Source: a virus. From it: DNA of 53,703 nt. The DNA is taken from the UHGV virus genome UHGV-0137934; one strand, 5' to 3'. The translations under genes and the position numbers were made by a program. The notes below the pieces were generated by a model. The model worked only from the letters and a program-made list of their open reading frames with translations. It was not told where the DNA came from and made no database searches. Below, piece after piece: positions 29,763 through 53,653 of this stretch; position 1 is the first letter of the stretch; each line of letters opens with the position of its first letter.

Positions 29763-30060
29763 CCACTTACCAGAAATAGAAAGATGTTAGACACATCTTC
29801 TGACCAATAAAATTATAAACCTAAGGGATTTCGACCAAATCATTTTCATAACTTCGCGTTAGCTAACAATTTCTTTGTCTGAACACGCTGCAAATTAAAA
29901 GGCTTAACTAGTTTGCATAGGCTGGAGTGTCGCGATTATTTACAGTGCTTTAGTAAATCGCTATGATTTACGGACTGGGGAGGCCTGAGACTCACCCCAG
30001 TGCCCTTAAAATCTGATTGATGCTTTTGAGGTCCGCTTCCCGAAGTGGACCTTTTTTTGC

Positions 30061-30088
30061 CCAAAGAAAAGGCCCGCCGAAGCGAGCC
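30061..30088 (-). terminator. intrinsic terminator (minus strand)
   Basis: Minus-strand hairpin GGCTCGC-TTCG-GCGGGCC followed by TTTTCTTT. Confidence 0.5.
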
Positions 30089-30119
30089 TGCCACTGCTGT
30101 TTCTTTGTTTGTATTGGTT

Positions 30120-30253
30120 GTGGTGCCGGGTGCCTCCCGGTGAGCTTTTGGGTGACCGACCATAGCTCGCGTTCATTAGCTTCTAACTCTGCTGACGTTA
30201 CCGTGCCACATTGTCTGGTCAGTTCCGCCCCGCCGCACAGGGGGATTCACCAC
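30120..30253. repeat. structured element A (134 nt) with conserved termini GTGGTGCCGGGTGCCTCCCGGTGAGC ... GGGGGATTCACCAC
   Basis: Paralogue of 31142-31253; termini can pair (GTGGTG/CACCAC); internal CCGGG...CCCGG hairpin; ERIC-like end motif. Confidence 0.35.
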
Positions 30254-30324
30254 GCACTTTAATTAACCAACCATTTAGACTCATGTCAATTATTTGTGTT
30301 CTATGCATCAACGTAGATAATCCG

Positions 30325-30971: not shown

Positions 30972-31141
30972 GAAAAAGTTGGCTTTCGAGGAGTAACGAT
31001 AAAGAAAGGTTCCTGATAGTCCGAGCTACCGATTTACCAGAAAAGCATTCCCTTTAATGTCGTTACTGTAATTAACCATAGTCTGCCAAAGAGGATGAGT
31101 AAACCTAACAGGATGTTCAGTTTACTTACTTGCGATTAGAT

Positions 31142-31253
31142 GTGGTGCCGGGTGCCTCCCGGTGAGCATGCCCCAACAGACATCACTCGCGTGGTATTCA
31201 CAGGGCTTTCGCTCTATTAGTTGGACGCCCCTCCGCATAGGGGGATTCACCAC
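31142..31253. repeat. structured element B (112 nt), paralogue of element A
   Basis: Identical 26-nt 5' end and near-identical 3' end to element A; variable middle. Confidence 0.35.
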
Positions 31254-31508
31254 AACAATAGATTAGCCATGCAGCATTCACATAGTCAATACCCTGTAGT
31301 TATAGGGTATATACGCATGCCGACAACTCTTAAATAAGTCAGAACACGATTAATTAATGCATATGAAATCATTACGGTATTAATGATAAAAACTCATACA
31401 AAACAATAAATTTAAAAGGAATTATCCGTTAGGATTTTTCCTACGCCAATCGCAAACTACGTTTTATAAAAACAAGAATGTCCATACTCTTTCCAGAGGT
31501 TAACTCAC

Positions 31509-44025: not shown

Positions 44026-44577
44026 TTATTTCTCCATACACAAAGATTTATTCGCCACGACGCCCGGAGCTGCACACTCGCGGGCGTCACTCTTTTCTGA
44101 CTGGCAAAAGACACGGAAAAGCAATGTCAAATGCTCCTGCCATTTCGCCATCACCTGATAACTGTTCTCCTCGATCTGCTCTCGTTCTGCCTGGTCAATA
44201 ACACCGTCAGCTGTAGCTTTACGGAGATACTGTGAGTGCTTTCCGATCCACTCGATAGACTCCATCAGGCGCTGGTTGATATCGGCGTTATCAACGTCCT
44301 CAATATCTGCCAGCGGCACAAAAACCCCGTTCGAATGGCGGGCTATCGCATTGGCTATATGATTCGAACCACCAGCGCGCTGCAGAACCATTGCCCAGCC
44401 TAGAGGGAAAATCTGATCTCCATCGGCACGTAAGCGGTTAAACAATGCGTTTTCAGTAACACCCAGCCATTCAGCTGCTTCTGCATACCCACCGTCCAAA
44501 TCAGTGATCGTTTTTTTGATCGCAGCCACCAGCCAAGCCGGCTGCTTATCAATTTTCCATTCAGGTTCTATACCCAC
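44026..44577 (-). CDS. cII-like/YdaT-like regulatory protein
   Basis: 183 aa; follows cro-like gene as ydaS-ydaT pairs do. Confidence 0.45.
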   Translation of the reverse strand: MGIEPEWKIDKQPAWLVAAIKKTITDLDGGYAEAAEWLGVTENALFNRLRADGDQIFPLGWAMVLQRAGGSNHIANAIARHSNGVFVPLADIEDVDNADINQRLMESIEWIGKHSQYLRKATADGVIDQAEREQIEENSYQVMAKWQEHLTLLFRVFCQSEKSDARECAAPGVVANKSLCMEK

Positions 44578-44621: not shown

Positions 44622-44822
44622 TTATTGTTTGGAATAGATATCTGGTCGGAGATCAAACTTCGTGATCGCGCCGGATGTGCTTTTTTCCAGTTTTTTTGCC
44701 AGATCAAATCCGGCTTTTTTGTAGCCGTTAAAAACTAAACGCAGATAACCGGGTGTAGAGCCAACGTTTGCAGCTAAATTGCTTTGTTGCTCTTTAGTTA
44801 ATGAATCCCAGAACTCTTTCAT
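44622..44822 (-). CDS. Cro/YdaS-type HTH regulator
   Basis: 66 aa from second ATG (AGGAGG RBS 8 nt upstream); divergent from cI. Confidence 0.6.
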   Translation of the reverse strand: MKEFWDSLTKEQQSNLAANVGSTPGYLRLVFNGYKKAGFDLAKKLEKSTSGAITKFDLRPDIYSKQ

Positions 44823-44892
44823 ATATGTACCTCCTGTGTACATATTACACGAAAGAAATGAACCTTCAAGGTACTTGTACCACGAAGGTACA
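44823..44892. promoter_or_regulatory. cI/cro divergent operator-promoter region with GTAC-type palindromes
   Basis: ATATGTAC-N7-GTACATAT (44823-44845), GGTACTTGTACC (44870-44881), GGTACA (44887-44892). Confidence 0.5.
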
Positions 44893-44909: not shown

Positions 44910-45584
44910 ATGAAAACAATCCAGGAAATCAGGCGGTTAAACGCCAGAAAATTGCGTGATGGTGTTGGCGGTAATATTTACTTCGCCAATATGATTGATC
45001 GCGAGCCGACTCAAACCAGCCGGTTCATGGGAGATGGCGCCACTAAAAACATCGGCGATGCAATGGCAAGGCACATTGAAAAGTGTTTTGACTTACCTAC
45101 TGGGTGGTTAGATCAGGAACATCAAACCACTAATGTTGCTAAAACTCCCGATGTCTCTGATACAAATAGAAATATCACCATGGTTCCGGTTATATCCTGG
45201 GTACAAGCAGGAGCATGGACCGAAGTTGGCTATGCTGAGGTTGATTTGAATAGCACTGAAAACTATCCATGCCCTGTTCCTTGTGGGCCGATGACTTATA
45301 TTCTTCGTGTTATTGGCGACTCAATGATCGACGAATATAGGCCCGGTGATATGATTTTTGTTGATCCCGAAGTTCCAGCAGTACATGGAGATGATGTGAT
45401 CGCCTTAATGCACGATTCTGGTGAGACTACATTTAAACGGTTGATTGAAGATGCAGGACAACGCTATCTAAAAGCACTTAACTCAAACTGGCCAGAACCT
45501 TACATCAAAATCAATGGTAATTGCTCTATCATTGGTACCATAATTTTTTCCGGTAAACCAAGACGATACCGAACGAAAACATAA
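44910..45584 (+). CDS. CI-type repressor (HTH plus S24 LexA-like peptidase)
   Basis: 224 aa; C-terminal VIGDSM ... ETTFKRL motif of S24 autoproteases. Confidence 0.85.
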   Translation: MKTIQEIRRLNARKLRDGVGGNIYFANMIDREPTQTSRFMGDGATKNIGDAMARHIEKCFDLPTGWLDQEHQTTNVAKTPDVSDTNRNITMVPVISWVQAGAWTEVGYAEVDLNSTENYPCPVPCGPMTYILRVIGDSMIDEYRPGDMIFVDPEVPAVHGDDVIALMHDSGETTFKRLIEDAGQRYLKALNSNWPEPYIKINGNCSIIGTIIFSGKPRRYRTKT

Positions 45585-45595
45585 CAAAGACTATT

Positions 45596-45619
45596 AAACC
45601 TGCTTCGGCGGGTTTTTTT
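45596..45619 (+). terminator. intrinsic terminator after cI
   Basis: AAACCTGC-TTCG-GCGGGTTT hairpin plus T7. Confidence 0.6.
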
Positions 45620-45623
45620 ACAC

Positions 45624-45656
45624 TTGACAATGTACCTCAACGGTACATAATGTACC
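45624..45656 (+). promoter_or_regulatory. P_L-like promoter overlapped by two operator palindromes
   Basis: TTGACA-N16-CATAAT; TGTACC-N5-GGTACA (45631-45647) and GGTACA-TAA-TGTACC (45642-45656). Confidence 0.6.
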
Positions 45657-45757
45657 TAAAAGAAACAGCGAACAGGCAGGACGCCCACGAAGTAGCCGCC
45701 CGGGGCATATGAAGACCGGGATGATTCGCTGACAGATAAACCAAATAGGAACAGATC

Positions 45758-45991
45758 ATGGCAAGCAAAGGCATTGAAAACCTTATCAAGGACGCATTAG
45801 CAAACGGCTGTCATGTAGTCCGTAAAGCGCATCGCTTCGAGGTAAGCAAGAAAGGCCAAAAATCAATCACTCTTATTATTTGTGAAGATGGCACAGCTTA
45901 CCGGGGAGATATTGACCTAACGATCGCCATAGCCATTCGCACTCAAAAAGAAATGCGCAGCATCCTCGGCCTGCCGGCCAAGGCAAGTTAA
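45758..45991 (+). CDS. hypothetical 77 aa protein, first ORF of P_L-like operon
   Basis: ORF with AGGA RBS; not arginine-rich like N; weak HicA-like resemblance only. Confidence 0.45.
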   Translation: MASKGIENLIKDALANGCHVVRKAHRFEVSKKGQKSITLIICEDGTAYRGDIDLTIAIAIRTQKEMRSILGLPAKAS

Positions 45992-45999
45992 TTACCACA

Positions 46000-47109
46000 G
46001 GTATCTTCGGGAGGGGTTGCGGAGCTGGATTGACCACCAGCAACAGAAACTCACCCGACATACAGCAGCCGTTTAGCCCACGGCGTCGGGGGTCCAGTAG
46101 ACCTGGATTAATACTGTAGGGGTTATGCCGGTTGGTCGCCGGCGCCCCGCCCGAAGATACCTGATCGAACATGGCGAAAGCCGACAGCGTTGAAGGCGAT
46201 TTTCTCGGTTTGCGCGCTAAACAATAGCGGGGGTGAAATCGGGGCGGAGAAGCAGAATCCGCGATGTCGGGACTTGATACTTCCGGCCAGACCAATAAGC
46301 CGAATGATCGCGTAACGGTCCTTTGCATCTGCCCCGGCGAGGTGGCGCCGCCGGACCGGGGTAGATGAATCGTACACAACATGAAAGCGCATTCCATCTT
46401 CATCCGTCGTGGGGACTGGTTTGTAACTGAAGGAGTGCGCTTCCAGTTGTGAACGGCAATATTCACGACCGTTGTATGGCACATGCAGCGTTAGCAGCCC
46501 GGATGGTTCCCTTGAAGTTCCATGCGCTATCCGGACAACTGGAATGTGCAAGCCAAGTGTTTCAGGCACGACGTGCGCCCCACCAGCGCGGCGAAAAGGT
46601 GTGACGCCCGGGAAGAGTCCGGGACACAACGATGAGGGCATTGACGAGCAAGGCACAGAGTCTGGTTCGATTCCAGACGCCAGGATAGTTCTATATCTGG
46701 TGATGGGCAGGGAAAAGGTCCGTTCGATTCGGACACCGGCAGTGCTCTCTTCGTTGTGGTAATTGCGGCTATGCGCACGTGACGAGCCAAACCCGTTCAA
46801 TGAATGCGTTTCCGGGCAGTGTACGTCGCCGGTTATGGCTTAACCCGGCAGGTGGAGGCACCACCGCCACAACCTAGTTAACTGTGCTGTGTGTAGTCTT
46901 GGCGGTTATCCAGTTTTCCACTATCCAAAGGAGGAAGAGGATAACGTTCTGATGGATAACCGCCCTTTTTACACAATACACAAGAGCATCACCGGGTGAC
47001 GGGCTCATTACCCAATCCACCCGGGCGGCGTCCTAACCGCAGGTGCTCTTCTGTGTTGTGTACGGAGAAATTCCCGGCGGTGGCAGCCGCCTTTCGAGAG
47101 GGTAAAACC
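46000..47109 (+). other. GC-rich structured non-coding region (candidate large ncRNA or cis-regulatory RNA)
   Basis: No credible ORF; multiple long inverted repeats and twin T-loop-like hairpins (see findings). Confidence 0.35.
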
Positions 47110-47481
47110 ATGAGTAATGATCGCATGACAGTAGTGCCCGATTTCCTGGGTGAACTGGACGCCGGCGTGTTCATGAACAAGATTGCGGCGGCTCTTAATA
47201 CCACCGCGCTCGGCGTTCTGAACAACGGCAACAAAGGCAAGGTTGTCCTCACCTTTGATTTTGAGCGTATGGGCAACTCTGTTGAAGAGAAGCGCGTCAA
47301 GATTAAGCACAAGCTGAACTACAGCACCCCAACTCCCCGCGGCAAAGCGTCGGAAGAGGACACCACCGAAACACCAATGTGGGTTAACAAAGGCGGCAAG
47401 CTCACTATCCTGCAGGAGGATCAGGGGCAACTCTTCGGTATCACCGGCACGGTGGACGGAAAGCTTAAAGCGGCTCAGTGA
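47110..47481 (+). CDS. YfdP-like hypothetical protein
   Basis: About 124 aa from ATG 47110 (GAGGG RBS); ORF track start at 46996 is unlikely. Confidence 0.5.
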   Translation: MSNDRMTVVPDFLGELDAGVFMNKIAAALNTTALGVLNNGNKGKVVLTFDFERMGNSVEEKRVKIKHKLNYSTPTPRGKASEEDTTETPMWVNKGGKLTILQEDQGQLFGITGTVDGKLKAAQ

Positions 47482-47537
47482 TCCGCACGCACAAATTCAC
47501 TGATACCACTTCGCTAATCAGTTAATAAGGAATTTTT

Positions 47538-48365
47538 ATGTCTCAGTTAGACAGCGGTACTTTTCAGCAGGTTAAAGACCTGGTGCTTTCGGGTTATCAC
47601 CTGGAAGATATTAACGGTCTGGCCTGCCCGACAGTCCTGCGCCCAGAAAATACCAGCGTTGAAAGCCTGGAGCGTTTTTCTCTTGAGCGCTTCCGTTTCC
47701 GCGGCGCCATGGACACAACCAGCATTGATGATTTCGTTCGCTATTCTGTTAGTTATGCCCAAGAAGAAGAAAAGGCACGTTGCTTTATTGATGCCGATAA
47801 CATGCTGGCCCGTTCTATCTTCAATATCGGCACGCTGGATAACCCAGGCCACGCTGATAACGTCGCCTCGATCAAGCTTAAGAAGACAGCGCCCTTCCGC
47901 GCGTTACTGGCGATCAACGGCGATCACCTTAATCAGAAGCAAATCGCTGAGTGGCTCGAAGACTGGAGCGATTATCTGCTGGCATTTGATGCTGGCGGCA
48001 ACACGATGACGATCGCCCAAGCTGCGCAAGCTGTCCGCCGCGTCACTATCCAACAGGCGACTCAAGCCGACCATGAAGATAGTGACTTTAGCGGAAAGAA
48101 ATCGTTGATGCAAAGTATTGAAGCCAGCAGTAAAGAGGTTATGCCAGTAGCGTTTGAGTTTAAGTGTGTACCCTATGAGGGCCTGGGCGAACGTCGTTTC
48201 AGTCTGCGCAATAGCCTGCTCAAAAGTAGCGAGCCGGTATTCGTTCTGCGTATTGTCCAGCTGGAAGCCCAGGAAGAAGCGATCGCCAATGAGTTCCGCG
48301 ATCTGCTGATTGGCAAGTTCGACGGCAAGCCGGTAGAAACCTTTATCGGCAACTTCAAAGCCTGA
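47538..48365 (+). CDS. DUF2303/YfdQ-like protein
   Basis: 275 aa; size and synteny match CPS-53 yfdQ as remembered. Confidence 0.5.
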   Translation: MSQLDSGTFQQVKDLVLSGYHLEDINGLACPTVLRPENTSVESLERFSLERFRFRGAMDTTSIDDFVRYSVSYAQEEEKARCFIDADNMLARSIFNIGTLDNPGHADNVASIKLKKTAPFRALLAINGDHLNQKQIAEWLEDWSDYLLAFDAGGNTMTIAQAAQAVRRVTIQQATQADHEDSDFSGKKSLMQSIEASSKEVMPVAFEFKCVPYEGLGERRFSLRNSLLKSSEPVFVLRIVQLEAQEEAIANEFRDLLIGKFDGKPVETFIGNFKA

Positions 48366-52278: not shown

Positions 52279-52515
52279 ATGTCACGTATGGTCTCTTTAC
52301 TCGAATGGGCGAAAGATGAATTCGGTAGTGAAGCCCCTAGCGAGCGTGTATTAAAAAAATACGCTAAAGGTCAAATGATAGCGCCGCCACCGATGCGAGT
52401 TGGACGGCGCTGGATGGTTGACAGAGAAGCTCGTTTTATAGGTGTCGTTGCTGAACCTCAACTTCCAATAAATGTAAACCCAAAATTGAGACGGATAATT
52501 AACGATGGCAGCTAG
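52279..52515 (+). CDS. xis: excisionase (Xis-like)
   Basis: 78 aa from ATG 52279 (GGAGA RBS); overlaps int start; lambda Xis-like pattern. Confidence 0.65.
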   Translation: MSRMVSLLEWAKDEFGSEAPSERVLKKYAKGQMIAPPPMRVGRRWMVDREARFIGVVAEPQLPINVNPKLRRIINDGS

Positions 52516-53653
52516 ACCGCGCACTCATAAAATCTCTATCCCAAACCTGTATTGCAAGCTTGATAAACGCACCGGTAAGGTTTACTGGCAATACAAACAC
52601 CCTATTTCTGGGCGTTTTCATAGCCTCGGCACAGATGAAGCTGAGGCAAAGCAGGTGGCAAGTGAAGCAAACACGATCATTGCAGAGCAGCGAACCAGGC
52701 AGATCCTTAGTATTAACGAGCGTCTGTCGCGTATGAAAGGAAACCGCGCGGACATTACAGTGACAGCATGGCTTGATAAATATGAATCCGTGCAGGAGGA
52801 AAGGTTGAAACACAACGAACTTCGACCAAATTCTTTTAGGCAAAAAGCTAAACCTATCCGGCTTTTTCGTGAGCATTGCGGCATGCAATATCTGAAAGAC
52901 ATTTCAGCACTAGATATTTCTGAAATAACAGATGCGGTTAAGGCTGAGGGTCATAATAGAATGGCTCAAATTGTTCGCATGGTATTAATTGATGTATTTA
53001 AAGAGGCACAGCATGCTGGACATGTTCCGCCAGGTTATAACCCTGCCCAGGCTACTAAGCAACCTCGAAACAAAATTACTAGACAACGTTTATCACTGGA
53101 GGAATGGAAGACTATTTATGAATGCGCTGAGCATCAACAGCCATATTTGCAGTGCGGAATGCTACTCGCAATAGTAACCGGCCAGCGCATAGGTGATATT
53201 TGTAATATGAAATTCACAGATATTTGGGATGATATGTTACATATTGTGCAGGAAAAAACAGGTTCTCGCCTTGCCATTCCGCTCTCACTAAGAAATGAAG
53301 TACTAGATATTTCGCTACGAGATGTTGTTTCAAAATGTAGAGATGCGGTGGTTAGTAAATATCTGGTCCACTTCAGACATACCACCTCTCAGGCTAACCG
53401 TGGTGATCAAGTATCCACGAAAACTCTGACTTCTACATTTAAAAAAGCTCGGGACAAAAGTTGTCTTGCATGGGATGAAGGAAGCGCCCCAACCTTCCAC
53501 GAACAGAGATCTCTTTCAGAACGGTTATACCGCGAGCAGGGCCTAGATACTCAGAAGTTACTGGGCCACAAATCGAAAAAAATGACGGATAAATACAACG
53601 ATGACCGGGGTAAAGACTGGCTCGTTGTAGGTCAGAAAGCAATACGATTTTAA
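52505..53653 (+). CDS. int: tyrosine integrase, lambda Int family
   Basis: 382 aa; closely resembles remembered lambda Int (LAIVTGQRIGD, PTFHE.RSLS.RLY, LLGHKS..M...Y). Confidence 0.9.
   Translation: MAARPRTHKISIPNLYCKLDKRTGKVYWQYKHPISGRFHSLGTDEAEAKQVASEANTIIAEQRTRQILSINERLSRMKGNRADITVTAWLDKYESVQEERLKHNELRPNSFRQKAKPIRLFREHCGMQYLKDISALDISEITDAVKAEGHNRMAQIVRMVLIDVFKEAQHAGHVPPGYNPAQATKQPRNKITRQRLSLEEWKTIYECAEHQQPYLQCGMLLAIVTGQRIGDICNMKFTDIWDDMLHIVQEKTGSRLAIPLSLRNEVLDISLRDVVSKCRDAVVSKYLVHFRHTTSQANRGDQVSTKTLTSTFKKARDKSCLAWDEGSAPTFHEQRSLSERLYREQGLDTQKLLGHKSKKMTDKYNDDRGKDWLVVGQKAIRF

Follow-up and report, generated by a model that had tools for sequence, protein, structure and literature searches.

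Phages encode small stable RNAs of several kinds, among them RNAs C and D (species 1 and 2) from the tRNA gene cluster of T4, and the RNase P-processed immunity RNAs c4 of phages P1 and P7 and CI of phage P4. These RNAs have tRNA-like features, are co-transcribed with tRNAs or leaders, and are released by tRNA-processing enzymes, properties that the RNA described here would share. In tRNA, the D-loop residues G18-G19 (then N20 and A21) dock on the T-loop, forming the elbow of the molecule. A precedent of another type is the dicBF operon carried by the Qin prophage of Escherichia coli K-12, in which DicF is processed from a DicA-repressed polycistronic transcript, the 5' end of a 190-nt DicF species being generated by RNase III and that of a 53-nt species by RNase E, and in which the transcript becomes less stable in its upstream part when RNase III is lost (PMC10448788). 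The subject of this analysis is an element of the virus genome UHGV-0137934, a stretch of 53,703 nucleotides called the window below. The element, at 46625-46758 on the + strand, specifies a self-contained four-helix RNA of ~135 nt that carries two tRNA-type T-arms and is termed the twin-T-arm RNA.

A first-pass annotation of the window had described two 5-bp stems 57 nt apart that carry the same 7-nt loop. Both hairpins are present on the + strand, T-arm 1 (TCTGG-TTCGATT-CCAGA, with a possible sixth pair G46660-C46678) at 46661-46677 and T-arm 2 (GTCCG-TTCGATT-CGGAC) at 46718-46734, 57 nt separating their starts. Window-only statistics for them are weak. The exact word GTTCGATTC occurs three times against 0.53 expected, a count reached by none of 100 shuffles, and the degenerate T-loop pattern GTTCRANYC is at chance level, with seven occurrences against 6.9 expected. 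It is because the hairpins are conserved in homologues, and not because of their frequency in the window, that they can be said to exceed chance.

Homologues were gathered by running a pattern that fixes the first junction strand (J1/2) and the loop of T-arm 1 on a viral collection. This yielded at least 125 oriented loci, from which 68 distinct copies were aligned (alignment A2). The two hairpins are helices P2 and P4 of a structure in which a closing stem of 20 pairs, P1, encloses a four-way junction bearing T-arm 1, a variable hairpin P3 and T-arm 2. The parts are the following:

46625..46646, + strand: 5' strand of P1, CACAACGATGAGGGCATTGACG, found as inverted repeat I5 and by RNAalifold with pair counts
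46647..46660, + strand: junction J1/2, AGCAAGGCACAGAG, with columns invariant in A2 and the D-loop-like word A-G-C-A-A-G-G-C-A
46661..46677, + strand: P2, T-arm 1, with the loop TTCRATT in 68/68 sequences
46678..46702, + strand: P3, the variable hairpin (CGCCAG...CTGGTG), with pairing kept among subtypes
46703..46717, + strand: junction J3/4, ATGGGCAGGGAAAAG, with TGGGCA and AAA invariant in A2 and a second GGCA word
46718..46734, + strand: P4, T-arm 2, with 99.1% of cells paired and compensatory changes in four of its five pairs
46735..46758, + strand: J4/1 (AC) and the 3' strand of P1, CGGCAGTGCTCTCTTCGTTGTG, the 3' strand itself (46737-46758) pairing with the P1 5' strand
46607..46623, + strand: accessory hairpin CCCGG-GAAGAGT-CCGGG, ending 1 nt before P1

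Covariation supports every helix. Across all pairs, 94.9% of cells in the 68 copies are paired, compared with 37-53% in slid controls, which displace the 3' partners by 1-3 columns; double changes are found in 15 pairs, compared with 1-6 in the slid controls; none of 500 shuffles matches the observed covariation, and RNAalifold reports 16 compensatory pairs. P1 is paired in 98.3% of cells over its 20 pairs, with compensatory changes in five. In T-arm 1 the pairs 42-56 and 43-55 covary and the G-C pairs 44-54 and 45-53 are invariant, with stem forms CTGG/CCAG, GCAGG/CCTGC and GTCGG/CCGA; one subtype has 4 bp plus G·A in place of the 5-bp stem. T-arm 2 is found as GTCCG/CGGAC, GTTCG/CGAAC, CTCCG/CGGAG, GTCTG/CAGAC, GCTCG/CGAGC and ATTCG/CGAAT, and the closing G-C pair of both stems never varies. 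P3 differs wholly between subtypes in sequence and length, and its pairs 61-82, 62-81 and 63-80 each undergo 24-34 double changes. Because the search pattern itself fixes GAGCAAGGC of J1/2, the invariance of that word is no independent evidence; J3/4 and T-arm 2 lie outside the pattern, and their conservation is. T-loop 2 reads TTCRATT in 65/68 copies, with three minor variants. Loop conservation in homologues had been named beforehand as a test of the hairpins, along with a covariation analysis, and on both counts the outcome bears the first-pass annotation out: the loops are near-invariant, and the T-arms sit within a covarying four-helix structure.

The unit of selection is an RNA of one strand. 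The helices contain 98 G·U cells and 21 A·C cells, and a covariance model of the family, R1, scores 151.7 bits on the + strand and 25.2 on the - strand; the selected object is therefore the + strand RNA rather than an inverted repeat in DNA. The minimum free energy (MFE) of the core has a z-score of -4.8, and folding of the single sequence recovers P1, P3 and P4. A pairing that the single-sequence MFE fold puts in place of T-arm 1 was rejected, since this alternative is not conserved. Protein coding was likewise rejected: the copies are 131-141 nt long, 16/68 differ in length by something other than a multiple of three, and the covariation is that of helices. A mutual-information search for tertiary contacts gave a signal dominated by two or three lineages.

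The tRNA signature of a T-arm, namely a 5-bp stem, a closing pair of the G53-C61 type and a 7-nt TTCRATT loop, is found here twice. The structure also resembles the tRNA elbow in that a GGCA strand is available to each T-arm, comparable to G18-G19-N20-A21 of the D-loop, and in that T-arm 2 lies 2 nt from the closing stem, much as the T-arm of tRNA stacks on the acceptor stem. On established tRNA knowledge, J1/2 would correspond to the D-loop series A14..G18 G19 Y20 A21. The earlier suggestion that the loops are T-loop modules for tertiary contacts is retained as far as the T-loops go, and is refined to mimicry of the tRNA elbow by full T-arms, each with a D-loop-like GGCA strand at its disposal.

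Nevertheless, the element is not a tRNA. ARAGORN calls no tRNA or transfer-messenger RNA (tmRNA) gene in the whole window, and the Rfam tRNA model RF00005 has no match in 45500-47700, at gathering score or at E<=10. There is no acceptor stem, discriminator or CCA, no D-stem and no anticodon arm: the closing stem has 20 pairs, J1/2 is unpaired, and the P3 loops vary in length and sequence and are unfit as anticodon loops. Given the negative searches and a spacing of 57 nt that is too short, tRNA, pseudo-tRNA and tmRNA were rejected, in agreement with the first reading of the hairpins, by which neither folds into a tRNA and which a tRNA call here would have refuted. That reading had also found no acceptor stem partner upstream; it missed the closing helix, which has strands both upstream and downstream but is no 7-bp acceptor stem. 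Its central proposal, T-loop modules of a structured RNA that is neither tRNA nor tRNA fragment, is supported.

Comparison with other structured RNAs sets the element apart. The known minimal mimics of tRNA (the tRNA-like domain of tmRNA, mascRNA, and the Y-RNA-like YrlA) and tRNA itself differ from it in that two T-arms here share one four-way junction; in addition, the Rfam Y-RNA-type models are silent and no rsr/Ro60 gene lies nearby. RNAs c4 and CI act by antisense pairing. The Rfam C4 model is silent here, and neither these two nor the T4 RNAs showed sequence or model similarity to the twin-T-arm RNA. GOLLD and ROOL are also phage or prophage encoded, often beside tRNAs, and highly structured, but they are 4-6 times larger, belong to other bacterial lineages, and have no Rfam match here at E<=10. 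Among all 4227 models of Rfam 15, nothing overlaps 46600-46760 at E<=10. A hammerhead ribozyme (CUGAYGAG...GAAA) was rejected by inspection, there being no stem II, mostly U at the C3 position, and no Rfam match. An integron attC-like or MITE-like DNA element was rejected as well, since the termini are unlike RYYYAAC/GTTRRRY and G·U and A·C cells are asymmetric. No description of the RNA turned up in the literature, whether searched by sequence words or by topic. We regard it as a new RNA family: its modules, T-arms and an RNase III stem, are known, they are combined in a way that had not been described before, and its function is putative.

The P1 stem is not confined to the twin-T-arm RNA. 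This inverted repeat of 22 bp has the conserved termini CACAAC...GTTGTG and a mosaic spread among phages, and in a census it was found to close at least 10 other cargo types, with up to three cassettes per locus. Two further P1-type cassettes flank the element in the window, and R1 matches both through the P1 positions only, the interiors being unrelated:

46372..46452, + strand: module A, with a P1-type stem around another cargo, of 36 nt (R1 24.8 bits with filters off)
46969..47061, + strand: module E, with a P1-type stem around a cargo of 41 nt; this cassette forms the yfdP-like gene's leader (R1 16.6 bits)

Still other cassettes of this type occur in Ewingella and in Klebsiella phage SopranoGao. 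These observations suggest that the cassettes form a superfamily of stem-enclosed RNAs, so far unrecognised, in the early operons of prophages. In locus L069 a 90-nt cassette, starting at ~2080 in the orientation of the element, has a single T-arm, GCGG-TTCGATT-CCGC, directly against its P1 3' strand; T-arms therefore recur as building blocks within P1 cassettes.

Two close relatives of the window phage, loci L019 and L021, have an extra cassette and a tRNA-like unit inserted directly before the core. The unit, 126 nt long, lies between the P1 cassette and the core (1800-1925 in L019; minus strand, ~2130-2200, in L021). Its acceptor stem, D-arm and T-arm are normal, its anticodon-like hairpin is odd, and ~58 nt are inserted ahead of the T-arm; the Rfam tRNA model gives it 40 bits, ARAGORN does not call it, and its ends overlap the neighbouring P1 ends. 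From such extra cassettes and units with overlapping ends it follows that the non-coding block consists of RNA modules, each with its own closure, arrayed in a single transcript. A single giant RNA spanning the 1.1-kb block was rejected, because the flanking modules are optional and are shuffled independently. The earlier inference of an RNA function for the block accordingly holds for a structured RNA, and fails for one large RNA covering the whole of it.

Among the P1-type cassettes there is one with a documented history. In Qin of E. coli K-12 (NC_000913.3; locus L144), R1 finds a cassette at 2171-2258, at 23.9 bits and E of about 3e-5, through P1 positions only; it lies ~125 nt upstream of dicF (2383-2435). 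The P1 3' strand of module A is 94% identical over 17 nt to this Qin cassette. The sequence displayed in Fig. S1B of the DicF study begins inside the cassette interior and extends to dicF (PMC10448788). An RNA of 190 nt ending at the dicF terminator would start at ~2246-2250, within the P1-type 3' strand (2238-2258). RNase III processing of a P1-type stem is thus documented for Qin only, and for the window it would follow by analogy.

The likeness to dicBF extends to the arrangement of the operon, although in sequence Qin and the window resemble each other only in short, mosaic stretches. Both have non-coding RNAs embedded in an operon beside the immunity region and released, in the window presumably, by processing, and the window shows the order cI(S24), promoter-like site, array, early-left genes and integrase. 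We propose grouping the two, as a set that is not a curated family, by their location in an early operon, their common strand and a homologous closing stem of ~20 bp. DicF differs in being a 53-nt base-pairing small RNA (sRNA) without T-loops, and Qin lacks the twin-T-arm cargo. Between the core and module E the window has a structure of its own that recalls DicF:

46901..46970, + strand: DicF-like long hairpin (inverted repeat I1), with a 12-bp stem GGCGGTTATCCA/TGGATAACCGCC, a loop of ~40 nt, and then TTTTT

This hairpin shares its terminator end with Qin dicF, and is probably an intrinsic terminator or the 3' end of an sRNA. The Rfam DicF model (RF00039) scores 16.5 bits at 46888-46965, which is below the gathering score of 48 bits, and 29.1 bits at the equivalent site of L019. 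The loop of the hairpin holds an AAGGAGG word and a 15-codon open reading frame (ORF).

The twin-T-arm RNA is widespread in phages of the Enterobacterales. Across 100 viral loci the R1 scores are bimodal, full elements scoring 128-160 bits and P1-only cassettes 28-38 bits, with one full copy per locus and no intermediate forms. A pattern scan of one genome per species gave 15 matches. Those in nine species of Enterobacterales (Izhakiella, Edwardsiella, Buttiauxella, Citrobacter, Brenneria, Rouxiella, Ewingella and two Yersinia species) are borne out by R1 scores of 132-160 bits; the six from other phyla were dismissed as chance, since none is full-length in R1 and a single one of them matches the model at all, at 9.4 bits (E=5, L133). 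Within E. coli, 116 of 5426 complete genomes (~2%) match part of a 551-nt query, mostly the part that holds the core. Carriers include Stx2-converting phages of O157:H7 as well as Klebsiella and Salmonella prophages.

The window is a lambdoid prophage by Pfam content, with a cII-like gene at 44026-44577 and a cro-like gene at 44622-44843 on the minus strand. Rightward are a cI-type repressor gene of the Peptidase_S24 family (44910-45584), genes for a DUF2303 (YfdQ-like) and a YfbR-like HD protein, and a lambda-type integrase gene at 52505-53653, ~6 kb from the element. A terminator-like hairpin follows cI, and after it comes a promoter-like site:

45624..45651, + strand: TTGACA-16-CATAAT, 11/12 matches, the sole such site on the + strand in 45500-47300

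The site is probably the early-left (PL-type) promoter of the array. Upstream of the yfdP-like gene, which starts with an ATG at 47110, ~1.1 kb (45992-47109) holds no credible ORF. The same order of repressor, 0.8-1.1 kb of unannotated DNA, and yfdP/Q/R or rdgC is found in a Stx2a phage, phage 1720a-02, Salmonella phage 118970_sal3, Edwardsiella phage EPP-1 and two E. coli chromosomes. There the element lies between cI (Peptidase_S24) and the yfdP/DUF2303 or rdgC operons, always on the strand of the downstream early genes, and its orientation relative to flanking transcription is fixed in 125/125 loci examined. Just 5' of P1, nearly all of the 77 distinct upstream flanks have a hairpin with a widely differing, covarying stem; such hairpins, the accessory hairpin of the window included, may serve to protect the upstream RNA at its 3' end once cleavage has occurred.

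Comparisons by BLAST with phages and E. coli genomes show that different phages share different sub-blocks of the gap after cI. The core block, ~46576-46776, is ~80% identical in Stx2 phages and in many prophages of E. coli, and 75% identical in the ε15-like Salmonella phages SPN1S, SPN9TCW and SPC32. In these last the element lies elsewhere, between the genes for terminase and portal, and passes without a break into a true tRNA-Arg(UCU) gene, such that the last three bases of P1 double as bases 1-3 of the tRNA (L001, 3281-3357; also L009, L126 and L060). This different context speaks for a portable RNA gene rather than a signal specific to one operon. Adjacency to a tRNA was rejected as a defining feature, being confined to 5/125 loci.

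Other features of the window can be recorded here. A 77-aa ORF (45758-45991) between the predicted promoter and the array belongs to no Pfam family and is conserved in 6/125 loci. At the start of the non-coding block, a 19-nt inverted repeat (45998-46016 with 46145-46163; 95% complementary) encloses 128 nt; its stem sequence differs from P1, the block is conserved in ~20 loci, and it may be another structured module. At gathering scores, the only Rfam 15 matches in the window are two distant copies of STnc100, on the minus strand at 30059-30282 and 31099-31282 (97 and 70 bits), in the late-gene regulatory region.

What might such an RNA do? We favour, with middling confidence, an RNA excised by RNase III that mimics two tRNA elbows and would act in trans as a decoy. 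First, induction or infection would lead to transcription of the array from the early-left promoter, which the repressor controls, as is suggested by its position and strand and by there being no other promoter-like site. RNase III would then cut P1, releasing an RNA of ~110-120 nt with a stub of ~10 bp, a step to which the published site upstream of K-12 dicF lends support; in ε15-like phages it would be RNase P, acting at the adjoining tRNA-Arg, that fixes the 3' end. In the released RNA each T-loop would dock on a junction GG, so that two elbows form within one compact fold, as the sequence and the known geometry of tRNA suggest. Lastly, and most speculatively, the folded RNA may bind or titrate in trans a factor that recognises the shape of tRNA, candidates being a tRNA-directed nuclease or defence protein, RNase P, enzymes that modify the T-arm, and the ribosome. 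Action by base pairing finds no encouragement: complements of the conserved junctions in the window are no longer than chance 10-mers, and an sRNA seed was rejected, the thrice-repeated 10-mer lying inside unrelated ORFs.

The strongest competitor, in our judgement somewhat unlikely, is a cis-acting module for processing or stability, in which the element directs RNase III and/or RNase P to cut the long leader or a tRNA precursor, so that the RNAs on either side are parted and made stable, and the excised piece has no function. The location of the element in an early-left operon leader, always on the strand of that operon, is what such a module would have, as are the head-to-tail arrays of P1 cassettes and tRNA-like units with overlapping ends and the direct contact with tRNA-Arg in ε15-like phages. 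Destabilisation of the upstream Qin transcript when RNase III is lost (PMC10448788) fits too, and the hairpin just 5' of P1 could shield the new 3' end of the upstream RNA. The stem alone, however, should be enough for RNase III, yet the 91-nt cargo, with its two junction strands, is near-invariant amid differing surroundings. In other cassettes this stem encloses cargos of unrelated kinds, so that cutting does not require the cargo, and the element moves between unrelated genomic contexts. A trans role is favoured over cis processing for these three reasons: the sufficiency of the stem, its unrelated cargos, and the travels of a near-invariant cargo.

A put- or nut-like site for processive antitermination, by which the leader would let RNA polymerase read through the 46901-46970 hairpin into the early-left genes, is distinctly improbable. 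Its place just downstream of the probable PL does correspond to that of nutL/putL in lambda and HK022, no N-like ORF lies between cI and the yfdP-like gene, and the core is followed by a terminator-like hairpin of DicF type. Against this, there is no second copy on the PR side, an unfiltered R1 search of the window finding cassettes only at 46372-47061, and the element also stands before a tRNA in the structural-gene region of ε15-like phages. The put RNAs of HK022 are two simple stem-loops, which would not resemble the twin-T-arm fold.

Decay of tRNA genes, leaving the T-arms as functionless relics of a phage tRNA cluster, would account for their perfect match to the tRNA consensus and for the tRNA-Arg(UCU) or tRNA-like units beside the element in a few loci. 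It has very little to recommend it otherwise. The 57 nt between T-arm starts are too short for two tRNAs, purifying selection is strong, compensatory changes occur in all four helices including the non-tRNA parts, the junctions are invariant, and the 100 loci include no one-armed or intermediate forms. A DNA-level element (a MITE-like inverted repeat, an integrase or attP core mimicking a tRNA gene, or a protein-binding palindrome) deserves equally little credence, for although a 22-bp inverted repeat with conserved termini recurs around different cargos with mosaic spread, and phage integrases often target T-arm sequences of tRNA genes, the G·U:A·C ratio of 98:21 and a six-fold strand difference in model score show selection on one RNA strand, orientation to flanking transcription is constant in all 125 loci examined, and the integrase gene of the window is ~6 kb away.

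Several points weigh against the trans-acting decoy that we favour. Module E accompanies the core in 81/125 loci, and this early-left linkage also fits a cis role. A tRNA lies near the element in only 5/125 loci (tRNA-Arg(UCU) in four, and in L063 a fifth, unassigned tRNA), and no consistently neighbouring partner protein was found next to the element. The docking of T-loops on GGCA strands shows no covariation, all the positions being invariant. Since the homologues were gathered by pattern, the invariance of J1/2 and T-loop 1 arises partly by construction, and collection by an exact pattern may also have led to an underestimate of the taxonomic range. The link to RNase III is built on a weakly scoring relative, and the position of its cut is taken from the stated 190-nt length and the extent of Fig. 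S1B, no coordinate being printed.

The twin-T-arm RNA would add to phage biology a widespread and well-supported family of structured RNAs, found in at least 125 viral contigs and nine Enterobacterales species, and it would represent a new reuse of tRNA parts, with two elbows placed in one junction. It connects the RNase III site known from the classic dicBF operon with a stem cassette of wider occurrence and diverse cargos, and is a candidate for interplay at the RNA level between phages and the tRNA machinery of the host or its tRNA-directed defences. The boldest form of the proposal, which we think unlikely but put forward tentatively, is a dedicated double tRNA-elbow decoy that is cut from the earliest leftward transcript and binds a tRNA-shape factor of the host, with the P1 stem defining a wider RNase III cargo system that includes the cassette upstream of DicF. 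If true, phages would have in this decoy an RNA-based means of host takeover or anti-defence that is new in kind. Even if the role proves to be cis-acting, the element would explain the 0.8-1.1 kb unannotated gaps that follow cI in many prophages.

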